64,000 bases of DNA, from positions 122,694 through 186,693 of IMG/VR virus record IMGVR_UViG_3300035698_012504, one strand, 5' to 3'. Both the position numbers and the translations under genes were made by a program. Below the pieces are notes generated by a model that was not told the origin of the DNA, ran no database searches, and saw nothing but the letters and a program-made list of their open reading frames with translations. Position 1 is the stretch's first letter; every line of letters begins with the position of its first letter. This DNA is from a virus. Of this stretch, positions 1,334 to 50,865 are shown one piece after another.

Positions 1334-3079
1334 ATGTTTAGATGTGAAATATGTGATAGAGAATTTAAAGGAATAAGATCGTTAGGTGTCCACATTAAAA
1401 GAATACATATGATTGAAACATCTGAATATTATTTAAAATATATTAATTTTAATAATAAATGTAAAATTTGTTCTAAAGAAACCAATTTTATAAATCTATC
1501 TAAAGGATTTAGAAAATATTGTAGTGGGTCTTGTAGAAATAAAGATCCTTATTATCAAAATAAGATTAAAGATACTAATTTAAAAAAATATGGTTCGGTT
1601 TCCCATTTTAATAATAATAAAATTCGTGATAAAATAAAGAAAACAAACTTAAAAAGATATGGGGATGATAACGCATTTAAAAATAAAGAGATTCGTGAAA
1701 GACAGAAAAAAACCCTCATAGAAACCTATGGTGTGGACCATCAATCAAAAATACATTCTGTTAAAAAAATATTAAGTAAAAAATCCAAAGAAAATTATCC
1801 AAATTATATAGATCAGATTAAACAAACAAATTTAGAAAGATATGGAACAGAATATGCGATTGCTTCAGATGAATTAAAAGAAAAGATAAAAAAATCCAAT
1901 CTAAAAAAATATGGGGTAGATAATGTGTTCAAACTCAAATTTTTCCAAGATAAATCAAGAAAAACAATAAAAGAAAAATATGGTGTAGATCATATATCTC
2001 AAAGTGAAATAAGAAAGAAAACAATTTTTACGAATTACTACACCAAACTTTTAACAGCTGAAAAATTTACTTCGAAAATTCTTCCCCTTTTTAATTTAAA
2101 AGATTATGATGGTACTAATAATAAATATTCATGGAAATGTAATAAATGTGATAATGAATTTGAAGATCATTTAAACAATGGACATATACCTAGATGTAAA
2201 AAGTGTTATCCAATTTGGTCAGGATCCTCAAAACTTGAAAAAGAAGTTAGAGAATTTATTGAAACACTTAGCATTAATTTCACCTCTAATACTAGAAAAA
2301 TTATTTTTCCTTTTGAATTAGATGTTTATATTCCAGAAAAAAATATAGCTATAGAATTTAATGGATTATATTGGCATAGTGAATTAAATGGGAAAAATAA
2401 GAATTATCATCTAGATAAAAATTTGAAGTGTAAAGAAAAAGGAATTCAATTAATTCATATATTTGAAGATGAATGGATTAATAAACAAGAAATAGTTAAA
2501 TCTATTATTAAAAATAAATTGGGATTGACTGAGACAAAAATATACGCTAGAAAATGTTTAATAAAAAATATTAATAATAAAGAAGCAACTGATTTTTTGA
2601 ATGATAATCATGTACAGGGAAGAATAAATGGAAAACATGTTGGTCTATATTTTAAAGACGAGTTGGTATCCATTCTTACAATTGGAAAAACTAGATTTAA
2701 TAAAAAATACGAATATGAAATATTAAGATTTTGTAATAAAATTAATACGAATACTATCGGTGGGTTTAGTAAGTTGCTAAAATATGTTATTAAAAATCAT
2801 TCTATATGTTCTTTAATTACATATGCAGATATACGTTATAGTGATGGAAAGTTATATAACTCTTCCGGTTTTAATCAATTAAATAAATCTACACCAAACT
2901 ATTTTTACTTAGATAAAAACTATAATTCTAGATTGAGTAGAATTCAATTTCAAAAACATAAATTAAAAAATTTATTAGAATCATTTGATCCTAAGTTAAC
3001 TGAGTGGCAGAATATGCAACTCAATGGGTATGATCGTATTTGGGACTGTGGGAATTTAGTATATGAATATAACTTTTAA
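1334..3079 (+). CDS. free-standing homing-endonuclease-like protein (N-terminal C2H2-like zinc finger, tandem KYG(V/S)xN repeats, DUF559/Vsr-like PD-(D/E)XK nuclease domain)
   Basis: N-terminal CEICDREFKGIRSLGVHIKRIH. At least six repeats of the form NLK(K/R)YG..N....KI...I.K. Nuclease-like FPFELDVYIPEKNIAIEFNGLYWHSE...KNLKCKEKGIQLIHIFEDEW. Sits in the 12-22 nt gaps between the RNAP beta-prime C fragment and beta genes. Confidence 0.55.
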   Translation: MFRCEICDREFKGIRSLGVHIKRIHMIETSEYYLKYINFNNKCKICSKETNFINLSKGFRKYCSGSCRNKDPYYQNKIKDTNLKKYGSVSHFNNNKIRDKIKKTNLKRYGDDNAFKNKEIRERQKKTLIETYGVDHQSKIHSVKKILSKKSKENYPNYIDQIKQTNLERYGTEYAIASDELKEKIKKSNLKKYGVDNVFKLKFFQDKSRKTIKEKYGVDHISQSEIRKKTIFTNYYTKLLTAEKFTSKILPLFNLKDYDGTNNKYSWKCNKCDNEFEDHLNNGHIPRCKKCYPIWSGSSKLEKEVREFIETLSINFTSNTRKIIFPFELDVYIPEKNIAIEFNGLYWHSELNGKNKNYHLDKNLKCKEKGIQLIHIFEDEWINKQEIVKSIIKNKLGLTETKIYARKCLIKNINNKEATDFLNDNHVQGRINGKHVGLYFKDELVSILTIGKTRFNKKYEYEILRFCNKINTNTIGGFSKLLKYVIKNHSICSLITYADIRYSDGKLYNSSGFNQLNKSTPNYFYLDKNYNSRLSRIQFQKHKLKNLLESFDPKLTEWQNMQLNGYDRIWDCGNLVYEYNF

Positions 3080-3100: not shown

Positions 3101-6100
3101 ATGCAATATGCCAGTATAAAACCATTCAAACCGGTTACGAGTATTATAATTCCGCCGAAGGGAATTAAAGGAAAAAATGTATGCTTAGCAGTTTTTCCAG
3201 AGAACGATTTGTTCTTTGACTTCTATAGATTAATGGGAATAAAACCTGCGTTTGTTAAGCACGTTCATGTTCCTATAGTTCAGAAGCCGGTTCGAATTAG
3301 GTTGACTCCTACATACAAAAAAATAATCAAGTCTCATAAGTTGTTCCCATCACAAGGGCACTTCGGAGATTATACAAAAGTATCAGACAAAAACTTTTAT
3401 CTTGATATGAGTATGTATATAGCAGCTCTACAAGCGAAGTTTAAAATTACTAGATATAACTCTGGAAGAGCATACGTATCAATTCAAAAATTAATATCTG
3501 CTTTAGATAGTGTACCTGCAGAATCACACGAAAGAGTTATATTATATGCTGTCAATATAGATAAACCAATACCTAAGAAACTTTTAAGCAGAAGGATATA
3601 TCCTGTATGGGCCATGCTGTTTCAATACATTAGTGGCCGAACAGAATCTCTCCCATTCGATAAACTATTACTATTTATATATGGACAAGACGAAAAAAGA
3701 TTTGTATTATTGTATGATAAAGATAAGAAAGTAAATCTAGCTAGAATTAAAAGCTATCTTAAGAAACTTAAATCACTAGATAAAGATGATGAAGAAGCTG
3801 TCGAATCTGAGATCACCTCACAAAAAACTGTAGAAAATCTAAACTCTACCACAACACTTACAAATGTAGAGAAAGACAACGTTCAGAAAACAGTAGATGA
3901 ATACCTAGAAGTTGATCCGTCTGCCAAAGAAGAACCTATTGGGAATATAGTAGCTGCTGCGATTGCATATAAGGTAACAGGTAGTATTGAAAAAGCAAAA
4001 TCTATTTCTAAAAAGGCAACATCAACTGATAAAGAAAAAATAATACAAAACTATGCTAAAGATCTTATACCAAAACAAAAAGCCTATCCACAGATTAGAT
4101 CTGCTATGGTTAAGATGGCAAGTCCAGCAGATATAATAGATAATCAAGTTCCTACTCACCTCCTTGAGAAAAGAAAGAGAGACTTTGCTGAGAATTTAGT
4201 TGAGGATTTAACTGATGCATTCAAGGTCTTAGAAAATAAAGATATGCCTCTGAAGGTTAAAGATATAGAAGTTAAAACTATGAAGTCTCCTCCCAGTGAT
4301 CTAACCCCTACAATCAAGGATAGATATACCGTGACTATGACTGATGATAAAGGAGTAGACCAGACTGTATATATGGATCTCCCTCACCTTACAGAGAACG
4401 GAACGTTTATGATATATGGTCAGGAGAATGTATTAATCAATCAGATTATACCTTATCCTATATTCTTTCTAAAACCATACCTTGGTAGGTTTGAATCATC
4501 TTACTCTACTGTAGCAATATATAGCAAGAGACTTAAAAGAACTTCTTATTTAATGATTCATATAGGTAACTATAAAATTCCATTGACTATGTTCATGGCA
4601 TATAAATATGGATTAAAACAATGTCTAAATCTATTTGGAATGAAATATACTCTTACTGATAAAAAAGATGGAGAGAATTCTCTAAAGTTACATGATGGAA
4701 CATTCATTAATTTTACATTCGAAGATGATATACTTGGACCAGAGGTAATTGAATCATTTAGATTTGCTCTTCCTAGTATTCCAGAAGGAGAAGATATAGA
4801 ATCTTCTGAGACATGGCAACACGGACTGGAATCATATACAGATAATAGAAACTGTGTTGATACTATGGATCAGATATGGGCAAATATTGTGACCCCTATA
4901 GAGATTAAAATTCTTAAATCAAAAGGGGATCCTACTAATATAAGAGACATAATTATATTCATAGCTAAGGAAGTTGTTCGTGGTCGAGTAGATGATAGAA
5001 ATGGTTGTGATAAACTCAGAATAAGATCGTCTGAATTGTTTGTGGCATTAGCACAGAAGCAGGTACTGATGGCATACAATGAGTATATGAGTAAGAGAGC
5101 GGGTGGAGATACAACTGCTACTCTATATATAAATCCTACGTCTGTGTTCACTGATGTTATAACCTCTCAGAACGTTGCTATATTAGAAAATATAAATCCC
5201 GTTGAAGAGTTATCAACAATGACAAGAATATCCCCTGTTGGTATTGGTGGTGTTCCTAAGTCGGAAGCATTTCCAAGACAGGCTATGAACGTCCACCCAA
5301 CATACTTCGGATGTATAGATCCTTTAGATACACCAAACGGGCCAGGGGTTGGATTCCAGCAGCATCTGACAGTCGGTGCGACAATAAGTAATGTCAGAGG
5401 TCAGATGATTGTTAAGGATAGAAAGAATGTTAAAGCCACGGAAATATTAAGTGTCAGTCCAGCGTTAATACCATTTGTAGAATCGAATGAAGGTGCTAGA
5501 GTTACTATGGCTGCCGGTCAGCAGAAACAGGCAGTGCCTATTAAATTCCCAGAGAACCCTGCGGTTCAAACAGGATACGAAGCATGTCTCACCCCACTTC
5601 TATCAGATAGCTTTATTAAGAAGAGCCCAGTGGACGGAGAGATTGTAGATATAAAGGATGGATTTATTTTAGTACTTGATAAAAGTGGAAAGACTCATGT
5701 AGTTGGTACTCGTCCAGCTAACCTTAAGAGTGGTGGCGGTCAGGATGGGCTAAGTGTATTTCATCCAACTGTTAAACTAAAACAGAAGGTTAAAGAAGGA
5801 ACTATCATAGCAGAAGGGGCCAATGTTAAGGACGGATTAATATCTAATGGTGTTAATATGTTGACTGGAATGATGCCATGGAAAGGATATAATTTTGAGG
5901 ATGGTATGGTGATAAGTGAGTCAGCAGCGGCGAAATTCATATCTGTTCACGCAGAACATAACGAAGCACTCGTCACCCCAGAAGAAGATATATCATTCAT
6001 ACAAAGCATCGGAAACACAATTAGAAAAGGAGACATCCTCCTGACATATTCAACAGCAATATATGATGTACAGGCAAACAAACATATACGAGCAGAGAAC

Positions 6101-7144
6101 GGACGTGTAACAGACATAGAAGTATATTCTAATGTACCTGAAGATGCTATACCAGAAAAGCTATTACCAGCATATGAACGATTTAGAGATCAATATAAAA
6201 CATTGCATGGTAAATATCCTATAGGACACTTCAGAGAGAAGGGTGAGAAGTTTGAAGGGATTAAAGTAAAATTTATTATTGCACAAGAGCTTAGTATATT
6301 TAAAGGAGATAAACTTAATAATCGTCACTTCAACAAGGGAGTTGTTGCTATCATTGAGAAGGATGAAAATATGCCTGAGACTCCTTGGGGTGATAAATTG
6401 GAGATGTTATATAATCCATTAAGTATTTTAAATAGAATGATTACTGGTCAGTTATTAGAAATGGCAACTGGATTAGTAGCTAAAAGAATTGCAGATCTAA
6501 TGGAAGAACTACCAAGAAAGAGATTCGAAGTAATATATCATAAGATACTTGTACTAATGGATGGAACTAAAGGAAAGACATATAGTAAACGGGTACATCA
6601 AAAGATGTCAGCATTATCTGATCCAGCATATGAAACAATTAGAAAACAAGTTATAAAGAATGGATTCGTTCCAATTATATGTGCTCCATTTAAGAGTCCA
6701 GATAGAAAAGCAATTGAGGTAGCTCTGAAGTTAGTTGGTAGATCGGCTAGAACTAAATTAAAGATAGCTCATTTAGGTGTGACAACAGAACCAGTAGCAG
6801 TAGGATATGTTTATGTTAACAAGCTTGAGCATATGTCAGAGAAGAAGATCCACTCCAGAGGAACAGGCGGATATAATTCAATAACATTTCAACCAACTGC
6901 AGGTAAAAGGAAAGGTGGTGGTCAGAAGTTAGGTGAGTATGATATGTATTCTTTATTAGGATGGAATTGTCCCACTCTAATTGATGAGTTCTTTGGACCA
7001 CTTAGTGCCGATCATGCTACAAAGAACCAGATGGTATCTGAAATACATCAAACTGGATCTACAGAATTTAAGACTCCTGTTCATAATCCAGTTAAAGATC
7101 TATTCTCTCAGATGATGACAGCCATACACTTGGAGTCTGAATAA
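3101..7144 (+). CDS. multisubunit RNA polymerase beta subunit (full length, set 1)
   Basis: LPHLTENGTFMIYGQENVLINQIIPYPIFF (beta region D: GTFxINGxERV). GQQKQAVPI. FKGDKLNNRHFNKGVVAIIEKDENMP (GDKxxxRHGNKGV). HSRGTGGYNSITFQPTAGKRKGGGQKLGEYDMYSLLGW (GGQRFGEMEVWALEAYG). Confidence 0.9.
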   Translation: MQYASIKPFKPVTSIIIPPKGIKGKNVCLAVFPENDLFFDFYRLMGIKPAFVKHVHVPIVQKPVRIRLTPTYKKIIKSHKLFPSQGHFGDYTKVSDKNFYLDMSMYIAALQAKFKITRYNSGRAYVSIQKLISALDSVPAESHERVILYAVNIDKPIPKKLLSRRIYPVWAMLFQYISGRTESLPFDKLLLFIYGQDEKRFVLLYDKDKKVNLARIKSYLKKLKSLDKDDEEAVESEITSQKTVENLNSTTTLTNVEKDNVQKTVDEYLEVDPSAKEEPIGNIVAAAIAYKVTGSIEKAKSISKKATSTDKEKIIQNYAKDLIPKQKAYPQIRSAMVKMASPADIIDNQVPTHLLEKRKRDFAENLVEDLTDAFKVLENKDMPLKVKDIEVKTMKSPPSDLTPTIKDRYTVTMTDDKGVDQTVYMDLPHLTENGTFMIYGQENVLINQIIPYPIFFLKPYLGRFESSYSTVAIYSKRLKRTSYLMIHIGNYKIPLTMFMAYKYGLKQCLNLFGMKYTLTDKKDGENSLKLHDGTFINFTFEDDILGPEVIESFRFALPSIPEGEDIESSETWQHGLESYTDNRNCVDTMDQIWANIVTPIEIKILKSKGDPTNIRDIIIFIAKEVVRGRVDDRNGCDKLRIRSSELFVALAQKQVLMAYNEYMSKRAGGDTTATLYINPTSVFTDVITSQNVAILENINPVEELSTMTRISPVGIGGVPKSEAFPRQAMNVHPTYFGCIDPLDTPNGPGVGFQQHLTVGATISNVRGQMIVKDRKNVKATEILSVSPALIPFVESNEGARVTMAAGQQKQAVPIKFPENPAVQTGYEACLTPLLSDSFIKKSPVDGEIVDIKDGFILVLDKSGKTHVVGTRPANLKSGGGQDGLSVFHPTVKLKQKVKEGTIIAEGANVKDGLISNGVNMLTGMMPWKGYNFEDGMVISESAAAKFISVHAEHNEALVTPEEDISFIQSIGNTIRKGDILLTYSTAIYDVQANKHIRAENGRVTDIEVYSNVPEDAIPEKLLPAYERFRDQYKTLHGKYPIGHFREKGEKFEGIKVKFIIAQELSIFKGDKLNNRHFNKGVVAIIEKDENMPETPWGDKLEMLYNPLSILNRMITGQLLEMATGLVAKRIADLMEELPRKRFEVIYHKILVLMDGTKGKTYSKRVHQKMSALSDPAYETIRKQVIKNGFVPIICAPFKSPDRKAIEVALKLVGRSARTKLKIAHLGVTTEPVAVGYVYVNKLEHMSEKKIHSRGTGGYNSITFQPTAGKRKGGGQKLGEYDMYSLLGWNCPTLIDEFFGPLSADHATKNQMVSEIHQTGSTEFKTPVHNPVKDLFSQMMTAIHLESE

Positions 7145-8856: not shown

Positions 8857-9081
8857 ATGGATCTCTTTGGAGCAATCGGAACGGCAATGGAAATCGTAGA
8901 AGAAGGTGCGGAGGTCGCTGAAGGACTCTCACCATTGGCCCTCGGTGGAATCGTCGCAGCCAGTGCCGTCGCCGGTGGCATCACCGTGGCAGCGATCACC
9001 CACACCATGGGCAAGGGCGGCACGGAGGGCAAGAAGAAGAAGAGCAAGAAGGAAAAGGCAGCCGCCCCCGCCACCGCCTAG
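8857..9081 (+). CDS. small GC-rich membrane protein (hydrophobic Ala/Gly-rich helix plus Lys-rich tail)
   Basis: SD GAGGAG 8 nt upstream of ATG 8857. MDLFGAIG...LALGGIVAASAVAGGITVAAI...KKKKSKKEKAAAPATA. Codon usage is GC-rich, unlike the rest of the window. Bracketed by the promoter motif and a strong hairpin. Confidence 0.45.
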   Translation: MDLFGAIGTAMEIVEEGAEVAEGLSPLALGGIVAASAVAGGITVAAITHTMGKGGTEGKKKKSKKEKAAAPATA

Positions 9082-9130
9082 TTACAACAGTCTTAACGAC
9101 ACGCGCCGAGCTGGCGGAGTCGCAGAGGTA

Positions 9131-9173
9131 GAGACGCGATCACTGGAGAGAAATCTCCTGGTGGTCGCGTCTC
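9131..9173 (+). terminator. strong 13-bp-stem hairpin (terminator-like, no U tract)
   Basis: GAGACGCGATCAC...GTGGTCGCGTCTC inverted repeat with a 17-nt loop, directly after the small GC-rich gene. Confidence 0.4.
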
Positions 9174-9178
9174 ATACC

Positions 9179-9190
9179 CTAATAAAGAAT
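9179..9190. repeat. 12-bp direct repeat CTAATAAAGAAT (right copy)
   Basis: Identical to 8799-8810. Confidence 0.4.
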
Positions 9191-9231
9191 CAAAATATTT
9201 TTGTTTTAAAATAAAAAGGAGAACGTGTATT

Positions 9232-14601: not shown

Positions 14602-14925
14602 ATGTCAGAAAATAAAAAACCATTTGAAATTGAAACGCCCGGCGAACTTCTACGAGCTATTCTATTTGTTCTTGGCAGTATAGTTTTTAGTGGTGTATTG
14701 GTGTTACTTGCTTGTAAAATAATTATAGATATAGTTATAGCATTATCATATACTTCATTAGTAGGAATAATAATAGGATCATTTATAATTGCAACAGCCT
14801 CAGTAATTGGAAGTCCAATACAAGAAGAGATGATTAAATACTATGAAGAAAAAAATAAGAAATATTTAGAAGAAAAAAAGAAAAAAGAAGATGACAAAGA
14901 TGTTCAAACTAACAGTAAGAGTTAA
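14602..14925 (+). CDS. small membrane protein
   Basis: Two long hydrophobic segments (ILFVLGSIVFSGVLVLLACKII... and LVGIIIGSFIIATASVIG) followed by a Lys/Glu-rich tail. Confidence 0.4.
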   Translation: MSENKKPFEIETPGELLRAILFVLGSIVFSGVLVLLACKIIIDIVIALSYTSLVGIIIGSFIIATASVIGSPIQEEMIKYYEEKNKKYLEEKKKKEDDKDVQTNSKS

Positions 14926-15328
14926 CTTCTCAGCAGCACATAGATTAAAATATAGTAAAAGTGACTGTGCGTTTTTACATGGCCACAATTATAAACTATT
15001 AGTATACTATGAAGGAGATCTATCTCCAACAAGTGGAATGGTAGAAGACTTCAAAGAAATAGAATCAAATATTGCAGGATATGTATTAGAGAAGTTCGAT
15101 CATTCTATAATAATAAGTTCACATGACACTGAAATGTTAGATGTTATTGGCGAGATTTCACCTAAGAAAATAGCACTAGTAGATGGAGAACCTACTGCAG
15201 AAGTAATAGTTAACGACATTGCAAAACATATAAGATTTCTTGCACTAGAGTCAGACTTCTATAAAGGTTACAGCGAATTAGAATTATGGGAAACAGATAA
15301 ATACTGCGTCTCATTAAAATTATATTAG
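14891..15328 (+). CDS. queD: 6-carboxy-5,6,7,8-tetrahydropterin synthase QueD (PTPS family)
   Basis: KLTVRVNFSAAHRL...CAFLHGHNY...GMVEDFKEIE are the PTPS/QueD zinc-site and catalytic motifs. The true start may be ATG 14900. Confidence 0.8.
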   Translation: MTKMFKLTVRVNFSAAHRLKYSKSDCAFLHGHNYKLLVYYEGDLSPTSGMVEDFKEIESNIAGYVLEKFDHSIIISSHDTEMLDVIGEISPKKIALVDGEPTAEVIVNDIAKHIRFLALESDFYKGYSELELWETDKYCVSLKLY

Positions 15329-15336
15329 GAGTACAT

Positions 15337-17832
15337 ATGTTAATACGAAAGTCAGGTATCATCCTTCCGAAAGATGACCCTCAGTTAGAGTTGATAAAAT
15401 CAGACCTCACTAGGAAAGTCTTTCAGTGGGATGGATCATGGAAAACTATGACCTTTTACGAGGACATGTCAGACTACATAGTTATCCCTAGATTCTACCC
15501 TGCTCTTGGAAAAATAAGAGATGATAGAACTGACGGAGATGATATAGAAATAGAATCAAAAATAAAACCTTTGAATTCTAGACAAGAGAAGGTGATGAAC
15601 TTTCTTGAGAAAACAGAGAATTGTATACTTAGACTCGAACCTGGGAGTGGGAAAGCTCAACCAATTTATTCTAAAATATTGACACCTATTGGTTGGAAAA
15701 ACCTTCAAGATATTCAAATCGGGGATAATGTAATTGATCCAGTATCTGGAAGAAATGTAAAGGTATTAGGTGTTTTTCCTCAAGGTAAAAAAGAAGTATA
15801 TAAATTAACTTTTAATGATGGAGCCACAACGTTTTGTTGTAATGATCATTTATGGAAAGTAAAATATAAAAGATCATGTATTGGTGAAAAAGAATATTGG
15901 AAGATTAAACCATTAAATGATTTAAAAAATGATTATTATATAGATAAACAAAAAAGACTTAAATATTTTATCCCAATTACATCTCCTATTGAATTTGAAA
16001 ATCAAGAAATAAAAATAGACCCTTATCTTTTAGGTTGTTTGCTTGGAGATGGAACAATTAGATTTGGTGGTGGAACTATATCGTTATCTTCCAGGGATAA
16101 AGAATTGATAGAAACTTGTTCGGTGTTATTAGATAAATATAATCTTGAGTTCAAAAAAGATAACAAATATGACTACAGAATAAGAATTAAAAATAATAAG
16201 TTTAGAAAAAAATTTAGAAAAAAAGGAAAATATTTAAATCCTTTAAAAATATATTTGGATGAATTGGGTCTTCTGGGTAAAAAATCATATGAAAAATTTA
16301 TACCAAATACATATAAATTTAATTCTATGTATAATCGAATTAGTATTCTACAAGGACTCTTGGATACCGATGGATATGTTTCAGATAAAAAACAAGAAGT
16401 TAGTTTTTCATCTACATCTTATACGTTATGTAAAGATGTTAAATTTATAGTTGATAGTCTTGGTGGAAAATCCAAAATATATCCAAAACAAACATATTAT
16501 ACATATAAAAATATTAAGAAAAAAGGAAGACCTTCCTGGGTAGTAAATATAACTTTAGATAAAAATATAATTCCATTTAGATTATCTCGAAAAGTTAAAA
16601 GATATAATAATATTCATAAATATCCTCCTTCGAGAGCAATAAAAGATATTAAATATATTGGAAAAGAAGAATGTCAATGTATAAAAGTTGATTCAGATGA
16701 TGGATTATACATAACTGATGATTTTATAGTAACACATAATACTGTTACAGCAATAGAAACTATATGTAGATTAAAGAAACGAACTATTATATTTGCTCAT
16801 AAAACAGAACTATTAGATCAATGGAGAGGTGAATTTCTTAAACATACTAATCTAACAGAAGATGATATTCAGAAGGTTAATACAGACGATAAGAAGTTTG
16901 ATGGCTGTCTGAAAAAGAAAATCATTTTATGTACACCCCATACTATATCTGTAGCTATTAGATTAAATAAAAAAGATTTCATACGCGCATTATTAAAAGC
17001 AGGCATAGGTATTTGTTTTATAGACGAATGCCATGTTGGAATAGGTCCAGAGGAATTCTCCAAGAGTTCAATTTATATAAACGCCAAACGAATATATGGA
17101 TTATCTGCTACACCATTTAGACCAGATGGAAATGATGACATAATAAGATATCACCTCGGAGAGGTAAAGTATTTTCCTCCGGAGAAAGATGAACTAATAA
17201 ACCCCAAAGTTCTTATGGTACATATGCCGTTCCATGTATTTGAAACATATAATATGAAACAAAATTTAATGTGGGGAGGACGATTTCAGAATGCTAGATA
17301 CTGGAATCTATTGGCGAAGCAACCTAAGTATATTCATAATGTTGCGTCGATTATAAAGAGAGCATACACAGAGGGAAGAAATATATTAGTACTTGGCAAT
17401 AGAGTTCAGGGTCTAATGAACATGGCCGAGGCATGTAATATTCATAAAAAAGACATCGGTATATTTATGAGCACTGCCACCAGTGAACATAAGAAAAGAG
17501 TTCTAGAACTTTCAGATACTACAGATCTTAAAGAAGCATTCTATAAAAAGCGAGTTGTGTTTTCTACATATGGTATGGCTAGGGATGGAAACAACAGAAA
17601 AGATTTAGACTTTCTTGTATTATGTATACCGACTGGCAACATAGAACAAGCAGTGGGTAGAGTTCAGAGAGAACTCAAGGGGAAACGTAGACCAATAGTA
17701 ATAGATTTAGTAGATACCCAAAGTCCTAAGAATAAATCTGGAAATTATATATTTGAATACCAGGCACAGAGAAGGAAAGAATTCTATGCTAAGATGGGTT
17801 GGAAAGTTGAGACGATATTTTTTAAAGAATAA
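15337..17832 (+). CDS. SF2 (DExH) DNA/RNA helicase interrupted by an intein in the Walker A motif
   Basis: The extein reads ...LEPGSGK|TVTAIE... (Walker A GSGKT once the intein is removed). CFIDECH (motif II), LSATP (motif III), QAVGRVQR (motif VI). Confidence 0.8.
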   Translation: MLIRKSGIILPKDDPQLELIKSDLTRKVFQWDGSWKTMTFYEDMSDYIVIPRFYPALGKIRDDRTDGDDIEIESKIKPLNSRQEKVMNFLEKTENCILRLEPGSGKAQPIYSKILTPIGWKNLQDIQIGDNVIDPVSGRNVKVLGVFPQGKKEVYKLTFNDGATTFCCNDHLWKVKYKRSCIGEKEYWKIKPLNDLKNDYYIDKQKRLKYFIPITSPIEFENQEIKIDPYLLGCLLGDGTIRFGGGTISLSSRDKELIETCSVLLDKYNLEFKKDNKYDYRIRIKNNKFRKKFRKKGKYLNPLKIYLDELGLLGKKSYEKFIPNTYKFNSMYNRISILQGLLDTDGYVSDKKQEVSFSSTSYTLCKDVKFIVDSLGGKSKIYPKQTYYTYKNIKKKGRPSWVVNITLDKNIIPFRLSRKVKRYNNIHKYPPSRAIKDIKYIGKEECQCIKVDSDDGLYITDDFIVTHNTVTAIETICRLKKRTIIFAHKTELLDQWRGEFLKHTNLTEDDIQKVNTDDKKFDGCLKKKIILCTPHTISVAIRLNKKDFIRALLKAGIGICFIDECHVGIGPEEFSKSSIYINAKRIYGLSATPFRPDGNDDIIRYHLGEVKYFPPEKDELINPKVLMVHMPFHVFETYNMKQNLMWGGRFQNARYWNLLAKQPKYIHNVASIIKRAYTEGRNILVLGNRVQGLMNMAEACNIHKKDIGIFMSTATSEHKKRVLELSDTTDLKEAFYKKRVVFSTYGMARDGNNRKDLDFLVLCIPTGNIEQAVGRVQRELKGKRRPIVIDLVDTQSPKNKSGNYIFEYQAQRRKEFYAKMGWKVETIFFKE
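15655..16740 (+). mobile_element. LAGLIDADG intein (362 aa) apparently beginning with Ala rather than Cys/Ser
   Basis: Block A AQPIYSKILTPIGWKNLQDIQIGDNV. Two LAGLIDADG motifs, LLGCLLGDGTIRFGGG and ISILQGLLDTDGYVSD. C-terminal DDFIVTHN followed by +1 Thr (TVTAIE). Removal recreates GSGKT. Confidence 0.7.
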
Positions 17833-19460: not shown

Positions 19461-19620
19461 ACCCCTAGATACTTTAGATCTTAATGATGCATCATCAGAT
19501 GAATTAATTAATGTATTACAGGAGCATGAGGAAGTATTAGAATCTATTGAGAGTAATGAACCTAACGAGGAAGTCAAACTAGAGTTGTTTGACGGTGGAG
19601 AAATCAGAAAGGACGGCTGA
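19396..19620 (+). CDS. hypothetical acidic protein
   Basis: 74-aa ORF in a different frame overlapping the previous ORF by 65 nt. Its end abuts the start of the next gene. Confidence 0.3.
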   Translation: MPTWINLKNSKRKSKSKKSAAEPLDTLDLNDASSDELINVLQEHEEVLESIESNEPNEEVKLELFDGGEIRKDG

Positions 19621-22253
19621 TGTATTTTAACATATGGCCAGAAGAACCAACTGAAAACTTTTCCTGGGCTATTTGTAAGAACCCCGAGTCCATCTTCATG
19701 AGAGAGATGGGTAAGGAAGGAAGACGAATAGCTGGGTGGTTTTCAGTCGATGAAAAGACTGGGCGACAATCATATCATGGGTCTGCAGTAAATGCGCCCC
19801 TATCATTTTTAGCAACTGCAAAGAAACTTAATCTACCAGCATATGTCCACAATCATATGACTTCAGTCTGTCCATATAACCTCAAAGCATTTGATGAAAT
19901 CCTCAGATCAGTAATGCGGGGAAGAAATGCATCTGGTGGACACTTAACTGATGAACAATTCTCAGAGAAAAGAATGTGGGGAGCATACATGGGACCATAT
20001 ACTGTGGACCATGAGTATGCCTCTTCATCATTTTCACAAGTAGGAATATCGTGTGTAGATACAATCGGTCTTCCTGGTGGAACACATATGTACTCACTAA
20101 ACTCAATAGAACCAATGTCCATAACAGAATTTCTCCAGAAGGTATATGTAGTAAGCTTTTATCTTTCATTCAATAGAGATAGCATTTACTCAATGGGTGA
20201 AGAACAAGTTGTTAAGTTTATAAATCTTTGTAAAGAATGGATAATGGATTGCCCAATCAAAAACATGATTGTAAATAAAATATGTAGATATAACAAGAAC
20301 CTTATTAAATTATTTGAAACTGGACTGATAGAAGGTATTGAAGACGAAGATCTTAGAGGTGAAATTGCCAAGAAAATAGATGAGAGATTTACACGGATAG
20401 GCCTTCATCAGAAGCGTCACGATCTTGTACTTGAGCTCATGAAAAATCTCCATGCAGATGGAAAGTTTAATACCTTTGTTGATCTTGGTTTCTCAGAAGG
20501 TAAACTATTGTATGCCCTCAGAGAACAAGAAGAGTTTAATTCAGTACGTGCAGTTGGTATAGAGCTAGAAGAGTATCGTGTTAGAAAAGCTCGAAAGAAA
20601 ATGAGAAATACGAATACCAAGTTGATACAATGTGATGCGATGTTCCCGAATATCACTGAAGTGGATGTTAATCCAGACGTATTAGCTTGTGTTGAATTCA
20701 TAGAACACTTCGACAGTGAAGATAGACGTAACCTCGTATCCATAATCAGGGACGTCTTCCAACCGAAGCATCTAGTACTGACTACACCGAACGTAGCATA
20801 TAATGATATAATAGGATTGGAAGAAGGAATATGGAGACATAGAGATCATAAGATAGAGTTCAACTACGATGAGTTTGTTGCCGAGGTAGTAATTCCTCTT
20901 GCGAAGAAATACACTGTGGAAATGCGCCTCCTTGTCCCAGAAGAAGAAATACAACCATCGTTCTGTTTAGTATGTACCCGAGTTGAAACTCCTATCAAGA
21001 AGAAAAAGAAGAGAGGGAGAGGTAGATCTCCTGTTAACCATCAAACAATATCAATAAGAAAATGGCAGGAGATGTATCAAGGAATTCACTTCAGTCGCGT
21101 AGGGTATACTGTCAGACCCAATGAGATAGCGAATGGATATTCATCTCGCGCATTCAGAATGAATGGAAAAAATATATTCTATCTTGCCCCAACAATAAGC
21201 CCGTGCGATTGGACTGAGGGAGCTCCAGACTTCTTAGAGCACCCTCTTTCTTGCTTTGAGTACTATAGAAACCGTGGAGTTACTAAGCTCATTGGTGAAG
21301 AAAAGTACATGGGTTCAAGAGGATATATACTATGCTTCAAAAATCCAGAGGATGCTAAGGCAGCTGGATACAGATTACCACTAGTTATAAATTCAAGAGG
21401 TGGGTTCCCATTCTTCACCGACGATGCCACACTGATGGCCATATGGGAAGAGCTCGCCCCTGCAATGAAATTTGATTTCATGGTACTAGATGCAGAGATC
21501 ATGCCCTGGAATTTGAAGGCTGGTAAGATGATTGATCGCCAGTTCAGACAGCCAGGTGAATGTGCATTTCTTTCTAGATCATACGCATCCGGAACCTCTC
21601 TGGAGGTTCCAAGCGATTACACCCAAAGTTCTGTAGACTTCCTAGAAACAGTAGACACATATGCTGCAGATTCCAGACTAGAAATAAGACCGTTCCATGT
21701 TCTAGCATATGGATCATGTGATCAGCATCCCAAAGGACTTAGGTTCAGAGATGTTGTGAATGGATTCTTTATGGATCATGGAAAACATCTAGAATTAATT
21801 CAAGATATCTCAAATACAAAAGGCGATGCCAGTTTCATTAAACATTGTGTTGGACATGTTGTATACTTACAAGAGCCGAAGTCAGTAGCAGATTCCATTG
21901 AGAGATGGATGAAGTATTGTGACAATGAAGTAGGCGAAGGATTCGTATACAAACCAATGGACTTCATGAGATATTCAGCGAATGGATATTACATTCAACC
22001 AGCAGTTAAAGTTCGAGGAAAGAGATACCTACAGATAGTATATGGTATCGACTATCTCCAACCTGATTATTTCGAACAATTAAAGAGAAGGGGAACGAAG
22101 AAGAAGAGAGTCCTTGCAGCTCAAGAGTTTGACGTGTCCCTCAATATGTTAACTGCATTCCTTAGAAGAGATCCGGTGATGCTTAAGCGGTACACTGCAG
22201 CGTTTATCGGAATGGAATCAGTAAACATGAGAGGTATTGACGCGACTCTTTAA
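19620..22253 (+). CDS. Hen1-like RNA 3'-terminal 2'-O-methyltransferase fused to an ATP-dependent RNA-ligase-like nucleotidyltransferase
   Basis: Methyltransferase motifs: FVDLGFSEGKLL (SAM motif I), LACVEFIEHF, LVLTTPNVAYN, WRHRDHKIEFNYDEF (Hen1 metal-site signature). Ligase-like motifs: EEKYMGSRGYI (motif I Lys), FMVLDAEIM (III), EGFVYKP (IV), VKVRGKRY (V). Confidence 0.65.
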   Translation: MYFNIWPEEPTENFSWAICKNPESIFMREMGKEGRRIAGWFSVDEKTGRQSYHGSAVNAPLSFLATAKKLNLPAYVHNHMTSVCPYNLKAFDEILRSVMRGRNASGGHLTDEQFSEKRMWGAYMGPYTVDHEYASSSFSQVGISCVDTIGLPGGTHMYSLNSIEPMSITEFLQKVYVVSFYLSFNRDSIYSMGEEQVVKFINLCKEWIMDCPIKNMIVNKICRYNKNLIKLFETGLIEGIEDEDLRGEIAKKIDERFTRIGLHQKRHDLVLELMKNLHADGKFNTFVDLGFSEGKLLYALREQEEFNSVRAVGIELEEYRVRKARKKMRNTNTKLIQCDAMFPNITEVDVNPDVLACVEFIEHFDSEDRRNLVSIIRDVFQPKHLVLTTPNVAYNDIIGLEEGIWRHRDHKIEFNYDEFVAEVVIPLAKKYTVEMRLLVPEEEIQPSFCLVCTRVETPIKKKKKRGRGRSPVNHQTISIRKWQEMYQGIHFSRVGYTVRPNEIANGYSSRAFRMNGKNIFYLAPTISPCDWTEGAPDFLEHPLSCFEYYRNRGVTKLIGEEKYMGSRGYILCFKNPEDAKAAGYRLPLVINSRGGFPFFTDDATLMAIWEELAPAMKFDFMVLDAEIMPWNLKAGKMIDRQFRQPGECAFLSRSYASGTSLEVPSDYTQSSVDFLETVDTYAADSRLEIRPFHVLAYGSCDQHPKGLRFRDVVNGFFMDHGKHLELIQDISNTKGDASFIKHCVGHVVYLQEPKSVADSIERWMKYCDNEVGEGFVYKPMDFMRYSANGYYIQPAVKVRGKRYLQIVYGIDYLQPDYFEQLKRRGTKKKRVLAAQEFDVSLNMLTAFLRRDPVMLKRYTAAFIGMESVNMRGIDATL

Positions 22254-22264
22254 CAATACAATTT

Positions 22265-22292
22265 CCAGGGGGAGGAATGGTTCTCCCCCTGG
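22265..22292 (+). terminator. GC-rich hairpin CCAGGGGGAGG-loop-TCTCCCCCTGG
   Basis: 11-bp stem immediately after the stop of the 19620-22253 gene. No U tract. Confidence 0.35.
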
Positions 22293-22313
22293 CACCCTTA
22301 AAGGAGACATCTA

Positions 22314-22802
22314 ATGGGTAGTATATCAGACGGACGAGACAAACCAATTAATGGATTTTTTAATCAATATGAATTCCTATCTAATTTTCATCCCGCTCCT
22401 GTAGAATTTGAAGGGGTAATCTATCCAACTGTAGAAAATGCGTATCAGGCTGCGAAAAGCAGAGACCCAAAAACAAGAGAGAGATTTGTAAATATTACTC
22501 CTGGCCAAGCAAAGAAACTAGGGCAGGAAATAGAAATAAGAGAGGATTGGGAAGCAGTTAAATTAGGGGTCATGTTCATATTATTATTTGAAAAAATTGA
22601 CGAACATGAAGATCTGCTGGAGAAATTAGTAGAGACTGGAAATGCACATCTAGAAGAGACAAATACATGGGATGATAAATACTGGGGAGTATGTGATGGT
22701 GTAGGTGAAAATCATTTAGGTATTTTATTAATGACAGTACGAGGAGCTATTGCAATTGAGAGAGGTATTATATTACAATGTGGATCATCTGCATCCTCTT
22801 AG
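22314..22802 (+). CDS. NADAR (YbiA/DUF1768) domain protein
   Basis: FFNQYEFLSNFHPAPVEFEGVIYPTVENAYQAAK, the NADAR signature (SNF..P....G..Y.S.E..FQA.K). Confidence 0.8.
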   Translation: MGSISDGRDKPINGFFNQYEFLSNFHPAPVEFEGVIYPTVENAYQAAKSRDPKTRERFVNITPGQAKKLGQEIEIREDWEAVKLGVMFILLFEKIDEHEDLLEKLVETGNAHLEETNTWDDKYWGVCDGVGENHLGILLMTVRGAIAIERGIILQCGSSASS

Positions 22803-23092
22803 GATCATTGCTCCTTCTTAAACTTAATATTAGTTTCTCTAATTGGGACATCACTTTAATAAATACATTAAAGCTTACACCTGTTATCATACTCGCTAAC
22901 TATTTATATTGGGTAGCATTTCAAAGAGGACCAACAATATTTGTGGTTTGGATTATAGCTACGGGATGTATATCAGTTCTTTCATTTCTTTATTCCATTT
23001 ACTTCGACAACCAATTAATTAATTTAAAATTGATAGTAGGATCACTAATGATACTACTTGGAAGTTACATCCTGACGACGACAACTAGCTAA
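22778..23092 (+). CDS. small multi-pass membrane protein
   Basis: 104 aa with three or four hydrophobic helices (IICILLGSLLLL..., VIILANYLYWV..., IFVVWIIATGCISVLSF..., LIVGSLMILLGSYIL). Confidence 0.4.
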   Translation: MWIICILLGSLLLLKLNISFSNWDITLINTLKLTPVIILANYLYWVAFQRGPTIFVVWIIATGCISVLSFLYSIYFDNQLINLKLIVGSLMILLGSYILTTTTS

Positions 23093-23104
23093 GGAGAAAG
23101 AAGA

Positions 23105-24346
23105 ATGGAAAGAGAAAGTTCATTACACCGGGTAACAAAAGGTAAATTCCTTAAGATGTATCTTACCCATTATGGTTATCTTTATAGATTGATGACTGAT
23201 TGCCTGCACTCCCATGAAGGGGAGCCGAACCGATACCATCTAGAGGATAATCTATGGACTCATACCATGTTAGTATTCAATGGACTGAATCTTTTCGATC
23301 CTTCTCTCTGTTACAACGGTATAAATATAAGTGATGTGGGAAATAAAGTAATTTTGACTGCAGCTTTGGTCCATGACTATGGAAAGATTTCACGTAGGCA
23401 ACCCAATAGAAAAGGGGACGGCGTGGCTTTCTATGGACATGGTCAAGCAGGCACACAGTTTGCAGCAGAGGTGTGTCACAAATTGTTTGGGGACGATCCT
23501 GATTTTGGTCTCATTCTACATTGCGTAACATTACTTACAAGTAGACACATTGATGCTTATCAATTGAAAGATAAAGGAAATATTGAAGGATTTTGTAACA
23601 ATTCATGGTTCATTACTGAATGCTTCAATAGATTATTAAGTGCTGATGAATATGGTCAGATCACCGATGATGACAATGATCGGATGAAGAATCCTGACCT
23701 CAGGTCGAACCAATTTACCATAGCGATTCAATCCCTACGGGAATGTGGGGTAGACCCTATATTAGATTTAAATAGAGAAATCTATTTAAATAAAGATGGT
23801 TCCAAATTAAAAGAAGACGATGATATTAATGGATGTATATTTTGTGGAGCTCCGGGCGTAGGGAAAGACTACCTCGCATTAAAATTAGGGTTCAAAATAT
23901 TTAGCTTCGATGATATCAGAGTAGCCGAATATATTAAAGAACATCCTGAGGCAGTTGATTCCTGCGACCCGGACACTTTATATAATGAAGCATACAGATG
24001 GTGCAACTCTAATAAGGTTGACTTAATGGCCTTGCTACGGAATGCGATTGTAGAATTCAGAGCAATCAATGGTACAGATGCGAAAATAGCAATATGTAAT
24101 ACGAGTCTTACGGTTAAATCTCGTAAGCAATTATTCAGTCTCTTGAAGAAAATACTAGGAAAAACATCCAAGATAGGATGTAAGTTTATAATATGTAACA
24201 CAAAAGATTACATTGCAAGAGATGCAGATAGAAAAGAGAAAACTGTAAAAGAACATGTAATAAATTGGATGATTCCTAAAATGAGTATCCCTACTCAGCG
24301 AGAAGGATTTCATAAAGTTGAGGTGATCTGGAACGACACCGAATAG
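23105..24346 (+). CDS. HD-domain phosphohydrolase fused to a T4 Pnk-like P-loop polynucleotide kinase (RNA end-healing candidate)
   Basis: HD motifs HTMLVF...TAALVHDYGKIS. Kinase motifs CGAPGVGKDYLALKLG (Walker A), FDDIR, IAICNTSLTVKSRKQ (T4 Pnk ISDTNLNPERR-like). Confidence 0.65.
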   Translation: MERESSLHRVTKGKFLKMYLTHYGYLYRLMTDCLHSHEGEPNRYHLEDNLWTHTMLVFNGLNLFDPSLCYNGINISDVGNKVILTAALVHDYGKISRRQPNRKGDGVAFYGHGQAGTQFAAEVCHKLFGDDPDFGLILHCVTLLTSRHIDAYQLKDKGNIEGFCNNSWFITECFNRLLSADEYGQITDDDNDRMKNPDLRSNQFTIAIQSLRECGVDPILDLNREIYLNKDGSKLKEDDDINGCIFCGAPGVGKDYLALKLGFKIFSFDDIRVAEYIKEHPEAVDSCDPDTLYNEAYRWCNSNKVDLMALLRNAIVEFRAINGTDAKIAICNTSLTVKSRKQLFSLLKKILGKTSKIGCKFIICNTKDYIARDADRKEKTVKEHVINWMIPKMSIPTQREGFHKVEVIWNDTE

Positions 24347-24358
24347 AAAGGAATATTA

Positions 24359-25093
24359 ATGGGATTAGATGTATCTTTATATAAATTGAATGGTGTTACG
24401 TATGATGAAATTATTGAAATGTCCAATGATTCTGATGAAGATCGCTGGGAAGAAATCGATGCAGCTAAAGAATCAATAGGAATAGATTCTAAATTATATC
24501 CTGATGAGTTATTTAAGATTGGATATTTTAGAAGTAGTTATAATGAAGCAGGAATTAATAGAGTATTGGATCAAAGAATAGGTAAATCATTACCAGATAT
24601 ATTTCCTGGTAAAGTTAAAGATGAATATCATGTTCGAGTTGATTGGGAACAATCATTACGATTAGCCACAGAAGTAAAAGAAGAATTCATAAAATTTGTA
24701 GAGTTATATGGTGACTTTACAATCATGACTGTGAACATGATTAATCCATTCCAACAGGCTCCAAGATCATCAGTATCTGATTCCGATGCCTTAAAAACAT
24801 TTATAGATGTAAAAGAAAAACATAAAGAGCCAAGTCCCTTTGGATCAAATTGGTTTAATAGCAACGAGGGAACATTTTTCTTAGACGATTCTCCCACAAT
24901 ACTTGCTGTCATCCCTGGCCAGAGCGTCATGGGTTCTCAAGTAATTCATCTTATAATCGAGAGTAAACGAGATGAGAATGGTGAACTAGCTTTAGATAGT
25001 TATGTTAGATCATTAGAGATCGTAGAAGAAACTTGCCAGTGGGTATTGACACAAGAAGACCCAACCAAATACATACTAGGTTGGTCAGGATAG
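24359..25093 (+). CDS. hypothetical protein
   Basis: 244-aa ORF. Confidence 0.4.
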   Translation: MGLDVSLYKLNGVTYDEIIEMSNDSDEDRWEEIDAAKESIGIDSKLYPDELFKIGYFRSSYNEAGINRVLDQRIGKSLPDIFPGKVKDEYHVRVDWEQSLRLATEVKEEFIKFVELYGDFTIMTVNMINPFQQAPRSSVSDSDALKTFIDVKEKHKEPSPFGSNWFNSNEGTFFLDDSPTILAVIPGQSVMGSQVIHLIIESKRDENGELALDSYVRSLEIVEETCQWVLTQEDPTKYILGWSG

Positions 25094-25099
25094 GAAACA

Positions 25100-25993
25100 A
25101 TGGGAGCAGTAACAGCTAAACTAAAAGAGAAGGGAGTGATTCAACCTCCCCCATTTTTACTAGATAATATACATTATGAAACCATGATGGGTAGTCATGC
25201 CTATGCAGTAAACAATTCCGATTCTGATGTAGATATATATGGGTTTTGTATACCCCCAAAAGAAATTATATTTCCACATCTAGGTGGAGACATAGTTGGG
25301 TTTGGACTGCAGAAGAAAAGGTTCGAGCAGTTTCAAGCACACGCAGCAGTCGATCCTGACACTGGTGTAGATTATGATATTACCATATATAGTATAGTCA
25401 AATACTTTCATTTATGTATGTTAAATAATCCTAATATGATTGATTCATTATTTACATCTAGACGTTGTGTATTGCATGCAACTAAAGTAGCAAACATTGT
25501 AAAAGAAAACAGAAAGTTGTTTCTTCATAAGGGTAGCTGGCACAGGTTTAAGAACTATGCCTACTCCCAAATAAATCAAATAAGAACTAAGAATCCAAAA
25601 GGAAAAAGAAAACAATTGGTAGAACAATTTGGGTATGATGTTAAGTATGCATACCATCTTGTTAGACTGATGTGTGAGGTTGAACAAATTCTTTTGGAAC
25701 ATGATATAGATCTTGAAAGAAACAGAGAACAACTTAAATCAATAAGAAGAGGAGAATGGACTAAAGAAGATGTATTCGACTGGTTTTCTAAGAAAGAAAA
25801 AATACTGGAAGAAATATATGTCAAGTCTGATCTCCGAGAAGAAGCAGAAGAAGATGCTATCAAGCAACTACTAATGGATTGTTTAGAAGAACACTATGGA
25901 TCATTGGATGGAGTGATCGTTACTCCTAGTAAATCTGGTAAAATTCTAGACGATTTAGAAGGGCTTCTTCACAAACATAGAATGTATGAATGA
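25100..25993 (+). CDS. predicted nucleotidyltransferase (Pol-beta superfamily, PF10127-like)
   Basis: MGSHAYAVNNSDSDVDIYGF matches the GS-x(9-13)-DxD nucleotidyltransferase signature. Confidence 0.6.
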   Translation: MGAVTAKLKEKGVIQPPPFLLDNIHYETMMGSHAYAVNNSDSDVDIYGFCIPPKEIIFPHLGGDIVGFGLQKKRFEQFQAHAAVDPDTGVDYDITIYSIVKYFHLCMLNNPNMIDSLFTSRRCVLHATKVANIVKENRKLFLHKGSWHRFKNYAYSQINQIRTKNPKGKRKQLVEQFGYDVKYAYHLVRLMCEVEQILLEHDIDLERNREQLKSIRRGEWTKEDVFDWFSKKEKILEEIYVKSDLREEAEEDAIKQLLMDCLEEHYGSLDGVIVTPSKSGKILDDLEGLLHKHRMYE

Positions 25994-50165: not shown

Positions 50166-50615
50166 ATGAAACATCTAGAAAAGATCGGTAGATACTTGTG
50201 CGGAGCACAAGAAGAAAGTAAACAGGTAGAAGAATTAAATGACAAAATTGAATCATTGATGAAACTACATGAGGAATTAGCAACTGAATTTGCAATGTAT
50301 AAAATTGAATGTGCTAAAATTAGACTTAGTGGTGCTGAACAACAATTAGGATTAATGGATTTAATAGATGTGCTATTAAAGAAACGTAAAAGAACTATAT
50401 TCGATAATGAATTAGTTGAGGAATTAGATCATGGTCTTATATCCGATGAGGAAATGAGTATTATAGATAGATTAATCGAAGAAGATAATTCTCAAGAAGT
50501 GTATAGCGACCAGGAGTTTGGAGAGGGGCTTCCACCTGATTATGTTGATGACTGGGATGATCCTGAAGTAATTGAGTCGCTACAAAAAGAAGCTGAGGGC
50601 AGAGACGATGAGTAA
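50166..50615 (+). CDS. hypothetical acidic coiled-coil protein
   Basis: 149 aa with a D/E-rich C-terminus. Confidence 0.4.
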   Translation: MKHLEKIGRYLCGAQEESKQVEELNDKIESLMKLHEELATEFAMYKIECAKIRLSGAEQQLGLMDLIDVLLKKRKRTIFDNELVEELDHGLISDEEMSIIDRLIEEDNSQEVYSDQEFGEGLPPDYVDDWDDPEVIESLQKEAEGRDDE

Positions 50616-50865
50616 ACCAAAAGTATATCCAATAACTAATTTAAAAGGCGTAGAAGTAGTAGTTAATAATCATGGTGAAAATTTTGAAAAAGGTTTGAAA
50701 AGATTTAAAAGAATGTGTAACAATGAAGGAGTCTTACAGGACCTGAGAGAAAAAGAAAGCTTTGAGAAACCAAGCGATAAGCGTAGAAGGAGAAGGCGAG
50801 CAGCAATTAAACGCTGTATGGATGCCGAACTCGACGAGTTGGAGAAAATGGATCACCATGGCTAG
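50608..50865 (+). CDS. rpsU: ribosomal protein bS21 homolog (phage-encoded)
   Basis: VVVNNHGENFEKGLKRFKRMCNNEGVLQDLREKESFEKPSDKRRRRRRAAIKRC matches the bS21 consensus (V.V..nE.f.kALRRFKR.cek.GvL.e.rrR.fyEKPs.kRkR...a..kR). Start set at internal ATG 50608 behind GAGGG. The ORF track begins 36 nt upstream. Confidence 0.8.
   Translation: MSKPKVYPITNLKGVEVVVNNHGENFEKGLKRFKRMCNNEGVLQDLREKESFEKPSDKRRRRRRAAIKRCMDAELDELEKMDHHG

Follow-up and report, generated by a model that had tools for sequence, protein, structure and literature searches.

Divergent QueD and Gat-QueC proteins of an uncultured jumbo-type phage suggest part of an archaeosine-type DNA modification pathway

The closest described counterpart of the two genes considered here is the dG+ system of Enterobacteria phage 9g (Queuovirinae), in which FolE, QueD, QueE, the fusion protein Gat-QueC and the transglycosylase DpdA1 are encoded in one compact cluster. 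Genes for a QueD and a Gat-QueC were also found in a stretch of 64,000 nucleotides from IMG/VR virus record IMGVR_UViG_3300035698_012504 (positions 122,694 to 186,693), which as a whole is referred to below as the window. In E. coli, 9g Gat-QueC and DpdA together give dG+ in DNA at 9-18% of G positions and still do so in a queC deletion strain, with the amido derivative dADG below detection and with no modification by Gat-QueC by itself; the authors concluded that dG+ results when Gat-QueC takes the place of QueC (PMC6884629). The dADG of phages and bacteria is ascribed to QueC* or DpdC, not to Gat-QueC. DpdA is considered the signature of 7-deazaguanine DNA modification; the viruses examined so far that carry 7-deazaguanine synthesis genes all encode some DpdA, and later analysis found one in all of the phages that were formerly thought to be without it (PMC10516641). 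A survey of jumbo phages has reported that some carry a partial deazaguanine gene set, possibly complemented by host enzymes (PMC7824862). The same domain fusion as in the window protein is also known, by published description, from archaeal Gat-QueC, an alternative to ArcS and QueF-L as archaeosine synthase, and published similarity networks place the Gat-QueC proteins of phages and archaea in a single cluster (PMC6884629). The archaeal enzyme acts on preQ0-tRNA supplied by arcTGT, whereas arcTGT, tRNA-guanine transglycosylase (TGT) and tRNA genes were not detectable in the window.

The two genes in the window are the following.

14891-15328, + strand: QueD-type 6-carboxytetrahydropterin synthase (T-fold, PTPS family), 145 amino acids, recognized by Pfam PTPS, PHROG and the motif CxxxHGH
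37580-39307, + strand: Gat-QueC (P0001), an N-terminal class-II (N-terminal nucleophile, Ntn) glutamine amidotransferase joined to a QueC-family PP-loop ATPase, 575 amino acids, recognized by Pfam, PHROG and blastp

Together, they add a divergent example to a kind of phage system that is already known. As in 9g, the QueD carries CxxxHGH and the Gat-QueC combines an Ntn-Cys amidotransferase with a QueC PP-loop domain (SGGxDS, RN and YPDN). By comparison with the compact 9g cluster, the window holds two pathway genes 22 kb apart in 64 kb, with no detectable DpdA, FolE or QueE; its Gat-QueC is about 100 amino acids longer, with three cysteines and insertions in place of C(x)8CxxCxxC; and it comes from a jumbo phage that encodes a multisubunit RNA polymerase of its own. 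At the level of sequence comparison, both proteins belong to their families with intact catalytic motifs, and relatives of the window Gat-QueC occur in complete DpdA cassettes.

The open reading frame (ORF) in which the first-pass annotation had seen a "textbook" QueD at 14.9 kb spans exactly 14891 to 15328, and contains the reported motifs FSAAHRL, CAFLHGHNY and GMVEDF. It matches the Pfam PTPS family (PF01242) over residues 7-142 with an E-value of 5.4e-23 and 81.7 bits against a cut-off of 22.4, as well as PHROG 2389 ('QueD-like', 3.3e-23), and its CAFLHGH represents the CxxxHGH signature of QueD, including the catalytic Cys. The PTPS family is also matched by DpdL, a QueD paralog in which LxxxHRHxF replaces CxxxHGH, whose Cys is essential (PMC10516641). 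Since the ORF reads CAFLHGH and not LxxxHRHxF, it is assigned as QueD-type and its identification as DpdL was rejected. From the family and the motif, the encoded protein is predicted to be a 6-carboxytetrahydropterin (CPH4) synthase.

Gat-QueC is encoded in an ORF that is open from 37565 (GTG) to 39307, with a probable ATG start at 37580 that gives MCFIS..., as in homologs and in the recorded product. The fusion placed by the earlier reading at 37.6 kb was confirmed by Pfam, with QueC (PF06508, 2.5e-25) as the best hit, over residues 296-505 (210 residues), and GATase_7 (2.5e-9) and GATase_6 (2.5e-8) in the N-terminal domain. The protein also matches PHROG 10428 (2.5e-30) and aligns with 9g Gat-QueC by blastp at about 25% identity over 469 columns, about 79% of the length (E 3e-32), and the best deposited-phage matches by tblastn are Nonagvirus/Seuratvirus-type phages annotated as 'dPreQ0 and archaeosine synthase'. 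Neither the QueD nor the Gat-QueC Pfam match is attributable to chance. A Met-Cys start is the hallmark of N-terminal-nucleophile class-II amidotransferases; an MC(G) start was found in 33 of the 37 sequences compared (36 family homologs and 9g). Among 28 homologs, the amidotransferase residues C2, R29, G30, D32, H126, G128, D155 and S156 are invariant (RGxD, HNG and DSE motifs). The window protein has kept SGGLDS, FRN (the RN of VPxRN) and YPDN, the last being the same variant as in 9g. In some relatives Gat-QueC reaches about 980-1000 amino acids and contains an intein (P0021; L020:10001-12997).

These motifs bear on the possibility that neither gene has to do with the other or with 7-deazaguanine, with the T-fold protein acting in pterin or folate metabolism and the fusion being an asparagine-synthetase-like amidotransferase for another carboxylate. 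In its favor, a distance of 22 kb separates the genes, neither reaches its equivalog cut-off, the asn_synth model TIGR01536 matches Gat-QueC at 9e-15 and other PP-loop families match the N-terminal part of the QueC domain. However, the QueC model is the best match and extends over 210 residues, the QueC-specific RN and YPDN motifs are present and CxxxHGH is the signature of QueD, and this explanation is thus held to be very unlikely.

Relatives of the window Gat-QueC were gathered from viral contigs by an alignment-based scan, a scan of the same contigs with the single protein having given no match, and a local table of hidden Markov model (HMM) matches was made over 40 loci. In six distinct loci (L011, L023, L024, L025, L026 and L027; Gat-QueC 33-35% identity), Gat-QueC is encoded together with QueE, a separate QueC and DpdA, and four of these cassettes (L023-L026) also include FolE and QueD. 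The DpdA of L011 is 31% identical to that of 9g (E 9e-24), and the Gat-QueC of all six loci has the three-cysteine zinc variant of the window protein. These loci hold the nearest relatives of the window Gat-QueC that are not from the jumbo clade, and differ from the window in having DpdA and a standalone QueC beside Gat-QueC; the window has neither, and has E2-like, E1 and JAB neighbors instead. Among the jumbo relatives, FolE and/or QueD were found within 10 kb of Gat-QueC in L004, L015, L018, L020 and L031-L035. Because of the DpdA cassettes and of the FolE and QueD genes near jumbo-clade Gat-QueC, the Gat-QueC family is firmly embedded in deazaguanine contexts, and in the jumbo clade the pathway genes are scattered, with any transglycosylase unseen. 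Neighbors of about 330 amino acids beside Gat-QueC in L010 and L012 were considered as DpdA and rejected, as they were not DpdA-like by hhalign.

In a 236-kb relative (contig IMGVR_UViG_3300022697_000186, L125:9368-19256), FolE follows RNA polymerase beta, and a radical-SAM/SPASM protein and an HPRT-type phosphoribosyltransferase are encoded 5-9 kb beyond FolE, all three without a counterpart in the window; no DpdA, QueE or QueC was found in the 10 kb downstream of this FolE. Flavobacterium phage immuto (L124) likewise has a phosphoribosyltransferase in its deazaguanine cluster.

The best explanation of these data, held with moderate confidence, is that the phage encodes part of a preQ0/archaeosine branch, with a DpdA elsewhere in its genome, and carries an archaeosine-type modification in its DNA. 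QueD would convert dihydroneopterin triphosphate, from a host or phage FolE, into 6-carboxytetrahydropterin, and QueE, which is not encoded in the window, would act next. Gat-QueC would then convert 7-carboxy-7-deazaguanine to preQ0 and on to the formamidine base G+, the PP-loop domain using ATP and the N-terminal Cys amidotransferase domain supplying ammonia from glutamine. From another part of a genome of about 150 kb or larger, a DpdA-type transglycosylase would be encoded that would exchange guanine for G+ in phage DNA, where the base would protect against restriction. What we infer here is the substrate, that the product is dG+ and not dADG, that a DpdA exists and that DNA is the target.

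With regard to the product, the first-pass annotation had proposed a 7-deazaguanine of the preQ0/ADG type, and had argued that the amidotransferase fusion predicts an amido derivative, that is, dADG in DNA. The more general part of this proposal is upheld, as both genes belong to preQ0/archaeosine pathway families and have relatives in DpdA cassettes; the ADG product is not. The QueC reaction has ADG as its first intermediate, and an enzyme with an altered zinc motif might in principle halt at this amide. An amido product is nevertheless considered very improbable: 9g Gat-QueC with DpdA gave dG+ and dADG below detection, which contradicts the proposal, dADG has been attributed to enzymes other than Gat-QueC, namely QueC* or DpdC, and archaeal Gat-QueC is an archaeosine synthase (PMC6884629). 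Because 9g Gat-QueC and DpdA yield dG+, the product expected by homology for the window Gat-QueC would be the formamidine base G+.

A number of results weigh against the reading of a partial archaeosine branch with a DpdA elsewhere. Both window proteins score below NCBIfam equivalog cut-offs; the QueD reaches 71.2 bits with the equivalog TIGR03367, under the cut-off of 89.25, and is 25-34% identical to phage QueDs. The word "textbook" was therefore an overstatement, although family and motif agree, and this QueD is a divergent member whose function is inferred from its motif. The zinc site of Gat-QueC is also unusual. The canonical QueC signature used for comparison was taken from PMC13082051, where the zinc motif is given as C(x)8CxxCxxC; the clade P0001-P0040 reads SC...(10-60 aa)...NC...(8 aa)...ACGSG, with the fourth Cys changed to Gly and with insertions between the cysteines. 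The zinc cysteines of CGxCGPC are retained in 9g (TCGPC) and in P0041. The presence of a separate QueC in the canonical cassettes suggests, furthermore, that this Gat-QueC subfamily may not make preQ0 itself.

The same holds for the missing pathway genes. Of the complete preQ0 pathway (FolE, QueD, QueE and QueC or Gat-QueC), the 64-kb window encodes QueD and Gat-QueC only. In Pfam scans of all window ORFs there was no match to GTP cyclohydrolase I, radical SAM, TGT or DUF6610 and no second QueC, and BLAST searches of the window with 9g and L011 reference proteins found no FolE, QueE, standalone QueC or DpdA. DpdA, types 1-4, the signature protein of the modification, was not detectable in the window, in agreement with the first-pass annotation, which had presumed a DpdA-like transglycosylase to be encoded outside it. 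The best match of an 87-sequence DpdA HMM, run with filters off, had an E-value of 1.6; alignment by hhalign of all window ORFs of at least 150 amino acids with a DpdA alignment gave a best probability of 3.7%, compared to 99.6% for the positive control; and DpdA3 references (phiST and Flavobacterium phage immuto) gave at best 1.8%, in a comparison of low power in which the DpdA3-versus-DpdA control itself reached 19%. In the jumbo-clade relatives, no DpdA, QueE or QueC was found within 10-20 kb of Gat-QueC, in sampled regions of 20-30 kb. A DpdA scan of viral contigs covered the best 80 of more than 477 matches, among which contigs known to carry DpdA did not appear, and the absence of the jumbo contigs from it is uninformative.

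The altered motifs can be placed next to those of relatives. P0039, whose gene lies beside a genuine DpdA, has the same three-cysteine zinc variant as the window protein, and the variant is therefore compatible with a DpdA-linked role. The canonical YxQxHxxE is likewise absent, with YGHVGEQSE in the window protein, YGHRG as the clade consensus and YGCRA in 9g; this departure extends to the Gat-QueC group as a whole, and the motif may thus not be a defining one for Gat-QueC.

The missing genes also fit a different explanation, in which the chemistry is the same but a DpdA is not among the genes of the phage. The phage would boost precursors (CPH4, preQ0 or G+) for host enzymes, or perturb host queuosine-tRNA or Dpd systems, and DNA modification would depend on the host or be absent. 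The window and the jumbo relatives hold only a subset of the pathway genes, complementation of partial jumbo-phage sets by the host has been suggested (PMC7824862), and an RNA-repair gene set in the window points to an investment in tRNA biology. However, a tRNA gene search of the window found none and no TGT was found there; bacterial TGT requires preQ1 (via QueF), not G+; every characterized phage Gat-QueC comes from a dG+ phage; and a DpdA was later found in all phages once thought to lack it (PMC10516641). A phage without a DpdA of its own is thus considered unlikely.

The source of the window is an uncultured jumbo-type phage with a genome of at least 152 kb, of which the window is well under half. 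A product identical to the window fusion protein is recorded on contigs of up to 152 kb, and relatives were found on contigs of 190-307 kb. Megablast of 25 kb of the window against deposited phages gave no DNA-level match. The genes of the window are dense, all convincing genes are on the + strand and the GC content is about 34%. Some of its features are listed here.

3101-7144 and 45681-48698, + strand: two RNA polymerase beta-like genes
42271-45069, + strand: multisubunit RNA polymerase beta', with the motif NADFDGD
50572-50865, + strand: phage-encoded ribosomal protein S21 (Pfam, 1.1e-16)

The two beta-like genes and one beta' gene suggest two polymerase sets, like those of other jumbo phages, the comparison with Pfam covering beta' only. 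The first beta-like gene (3101-7144) is diverged and reads NRHFNKG, compared to NRHGNKG in the other. The S21 gene together with the GC content of 34% may be a clue to the host group. The window also encodes a type II topoisomerase, SbcCD-like proteins, a large terminase subunit, inteins and homing endonucleases.

Among other genes in the window, the RNA-repair set at 19620-25993 has a PNKP-type ligase domain (E 5.8e-59) joined to a methyltransferase domain, and also includes a NADAR domain protein and an RlaP nucleotidyltransferase; the relative L009 encodes a CCA-adding enzyme as well. Several selfish elements are present, with LAGLIDADG domains at 78-1322 and a DUF7487/restriction endonuclease (REase)-like protein at 1334-3079, and the superfamily-2 helicase gene at 15337-17832 is split by a LAGLIDADG intein. 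An Arg/Pro-rich ORF (RRARRRRARRKRQPPPPPP) is found at 8906-9214. Matches of window ORFs to 'Serglycin' and proline-rich Pfam families were rejected as artefacts of the linkers used in packing ORFs.

The window Gat-QueC is flanked by a block of genes, between 34247 and 40138, that is a more surprising feature than the deazaguanine genes. The component set of this block matches those of the bacterial Bil (BilABCD) and type II CBASS Cap2/Cap3 systems, that is, an E1 adenylation enzyme, an E2 with HPN...Cys, a JAB peptidase of the deubiquitinase type and a small protein.

34247-35485, + strand: E2-like protein, 412 amino acids, carrying a UBC-like domain at its C-terminus and the active-site motif HPNVN...VCLG
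35485-36480, + strand: E1-like ThiF-family adenylating enzyme, 331 amino acids (Pfam ThiF 1.4e-14; motifs GCGGTGS and SNLQR)
36480-37580, + strand: JAB/JAMM metallopeptidase, 366 amino acids, with a JAMM motif and an acidic, Gly-rich low-complexity tail
39318-39887, + strand: short ThiF-like protein (E1'), 189 amino acids (Pfam ThiF 1.7e-6, 27.8 bits against a cut-off of 28.1; PADLOC E1-E2 1.4e-8)
39878-40138, + strand: small protein, 86 amino acids, always directly after E1', with the C-terminus (L/M)PIV(E/N)SA (PIVNSA in the window)

The E2-like assignment came from the family as a whole. Exhaustive search yielded 109 representative clusters, word-indexed homolog searches having returned two proteins each, and the exact motif HPN(V/I)...C(I/L/M)G was present in 92 of the 110 sequences examined. 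Against the PDB, a profile of 97 sequences matched E2 enzymes (E 5e-4) in a region that takes in the HPN-Cys site and the helix after it, hhalign of the family against an E2 alignment gave 87% over 86 columns, and Pfam UQ_con was matched by four family members. Both a UBC fold and an HPN...Cys active site were scored as present for the window protein. PADLOC and Pfam E2 models did not recognize the window protein itself, and Foldseek found no significant match for it. An AlphaFold model built from a two-sequence alignment was discarded at a predicted local distance difference test (pLDDT) score of 35 and the modeling was repeated with 97 sequences. A shorter E2-like paralog of 241 amino acids (motif HPNAENHSFCLG; E 1e-9 with the family HMM) is encoded at 41565-42290, immediately upstream of RNA polymerase beta', an arrangement also present in L008 and L009.

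For the E1-like protein, further support came from NCBIfam ThiF/MoeB/UbaA matches and from the PADLOC CBASS Cap2 'E1-E2' model (2e-9). In the JAB protein, the JAMM residues E84 and H132-x-H134-x7-S142-x2-D145 are invariant in five orthologs; the match to Pfam Prok-JAB is weak (2.7e-4, under the cut-off), and a query of deposited phages with this protein gave no match. The length of its tail is not conserved among orthologs. In the C-terminal half of the gene, which encodes this Gly/Ser/Asp-rich low-complexity tail, the local GC content is 0.42, compared to 0.34. E1' reads GCGNLGS and has 'ENKNLPF' in place of the SNLxR motif, and could possibly be an inactive adenylation-domain partner. The small proteins of nine loci end in PIVNSA, PIVESA, PMIESA, PEIEAA, PVTGAA or PVTDAA. 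The 86-amino-acid protein of the window showed no similarity by hhalign to Ub, ThiS or MoaD and ends in Ala, not Gly; it is a candidate for the conjugated tag.

The order E2-like/E1/JAB...E1'/small protein was found in at least eight distinct jumbo-phage contigs, some without Gat-QueC inside. Judged from its gene content, the block looks like a phage-encoded ubiquitin-like conjugation module. Compared to Bil and CBASS, it is encoded by a phage and not in a bacterial defense island, it has an extra short E1-like gene, its E2-like domain is C-terminal in a protein about 410-750 amino acids long and its small protein ends in Ala instead of Gly, with no detectable beta-grasp similarity. That the block by itself would represent a functional phage-encoded E1-E2-deubiquitinase cascade, unrelated to Gat-QueC, is about as plausible as its opposite, and has a much higher probability than the hybrid system considered next. 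A search of the available literature found no description of such a conjugation module in phages, which is not proof of newness.

Taking into consideration that the place of Gat-QueC is between JAB and E1' both in the window and on at least five distinct contigs, it could act together with the flanking genes. In such a hybrid nucleobase/ubiquitin-like system, Gat-QueC might, for example, join the carboxylate of a 7-deazaguanine to a protein amine, like the QueC-family protein deazaguanylases Cap9 and QatC, or amidate an activated C-terminus. Protein deazaguanylation is known for QueC-family enzymes, the QueC PP-loop scaffold is common to Cap9, QatC and the window protein, and the zinc motif of the latter is remodeled relative to 9g. 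The PADLOC Cap9-type 'QueC' model matches the window Gat-QueC at 4.7e-12 in the P-loop region only (residues 287-355). In addition, L015 and L016, where E2, E1 and JAB are absent nearby, still have E1' and the small protein at 1-3 kb from Gat-QueC.

The two modules are nevertheless separable. In L039 and L040, E2-E1-JAB...E1'-small ORF is found with other genes in the place of Gat-QueC (the small ORFs ending in PVTGAA and PVTDAA), and on contig 3300009502_000023 the block (L040) and Gat-QueC (L021) are about 34 kb apart. The genomes are broadly collinear, so that adjacency is weak evidence. The same three-cysteine subfamily occurs in ordinary DpdA cassettes (L011 and L027), and the intact glutamine amidotransferase, a domain with which neither Cap9 (about 185 amino acids) nor QatC has been described, favors ammonia over a protein amine as the nucleophile. 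Domains of the Cap9 and QatC partners (CD-NTase, Cap10 and QatA/B/D) were not found in the window, with no CD-NTase or QatB-like partner among its Pfam matches. A hybrid system is thus judged improbable, and since the block also occurs without Gat-QueC inside, Gat-QueC and the conjugation block are probably independent.

If the proposed modification of DNA is true, the archaeosine-type guanine-replacing phages would be joined by a widespread clade of uncultured jumbo phages that encode multisubunit RNA polymerases of their own, with pathway genes that are scattered and not clustered, and this would bear on the prediction of restriction and CRISPR resistance and of sequencing artefacts in metagenomic phages. 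The window Gat-QueC is a natural zinc-site variant for enzymology, and partial pathways with no DpdA nearby test the published generalization that DpdA always accompanies these genes. The E2-like/E1/JAB/E1'/tag block indicates that phages too, and not only their hosts, may run ubiquitin-like conjugation. If the hybrid system were to be true, the phage would combine two protein-modification chemistries for which the only examples known to date are bacterial, in CBASS types II and IV and in Qat defense.

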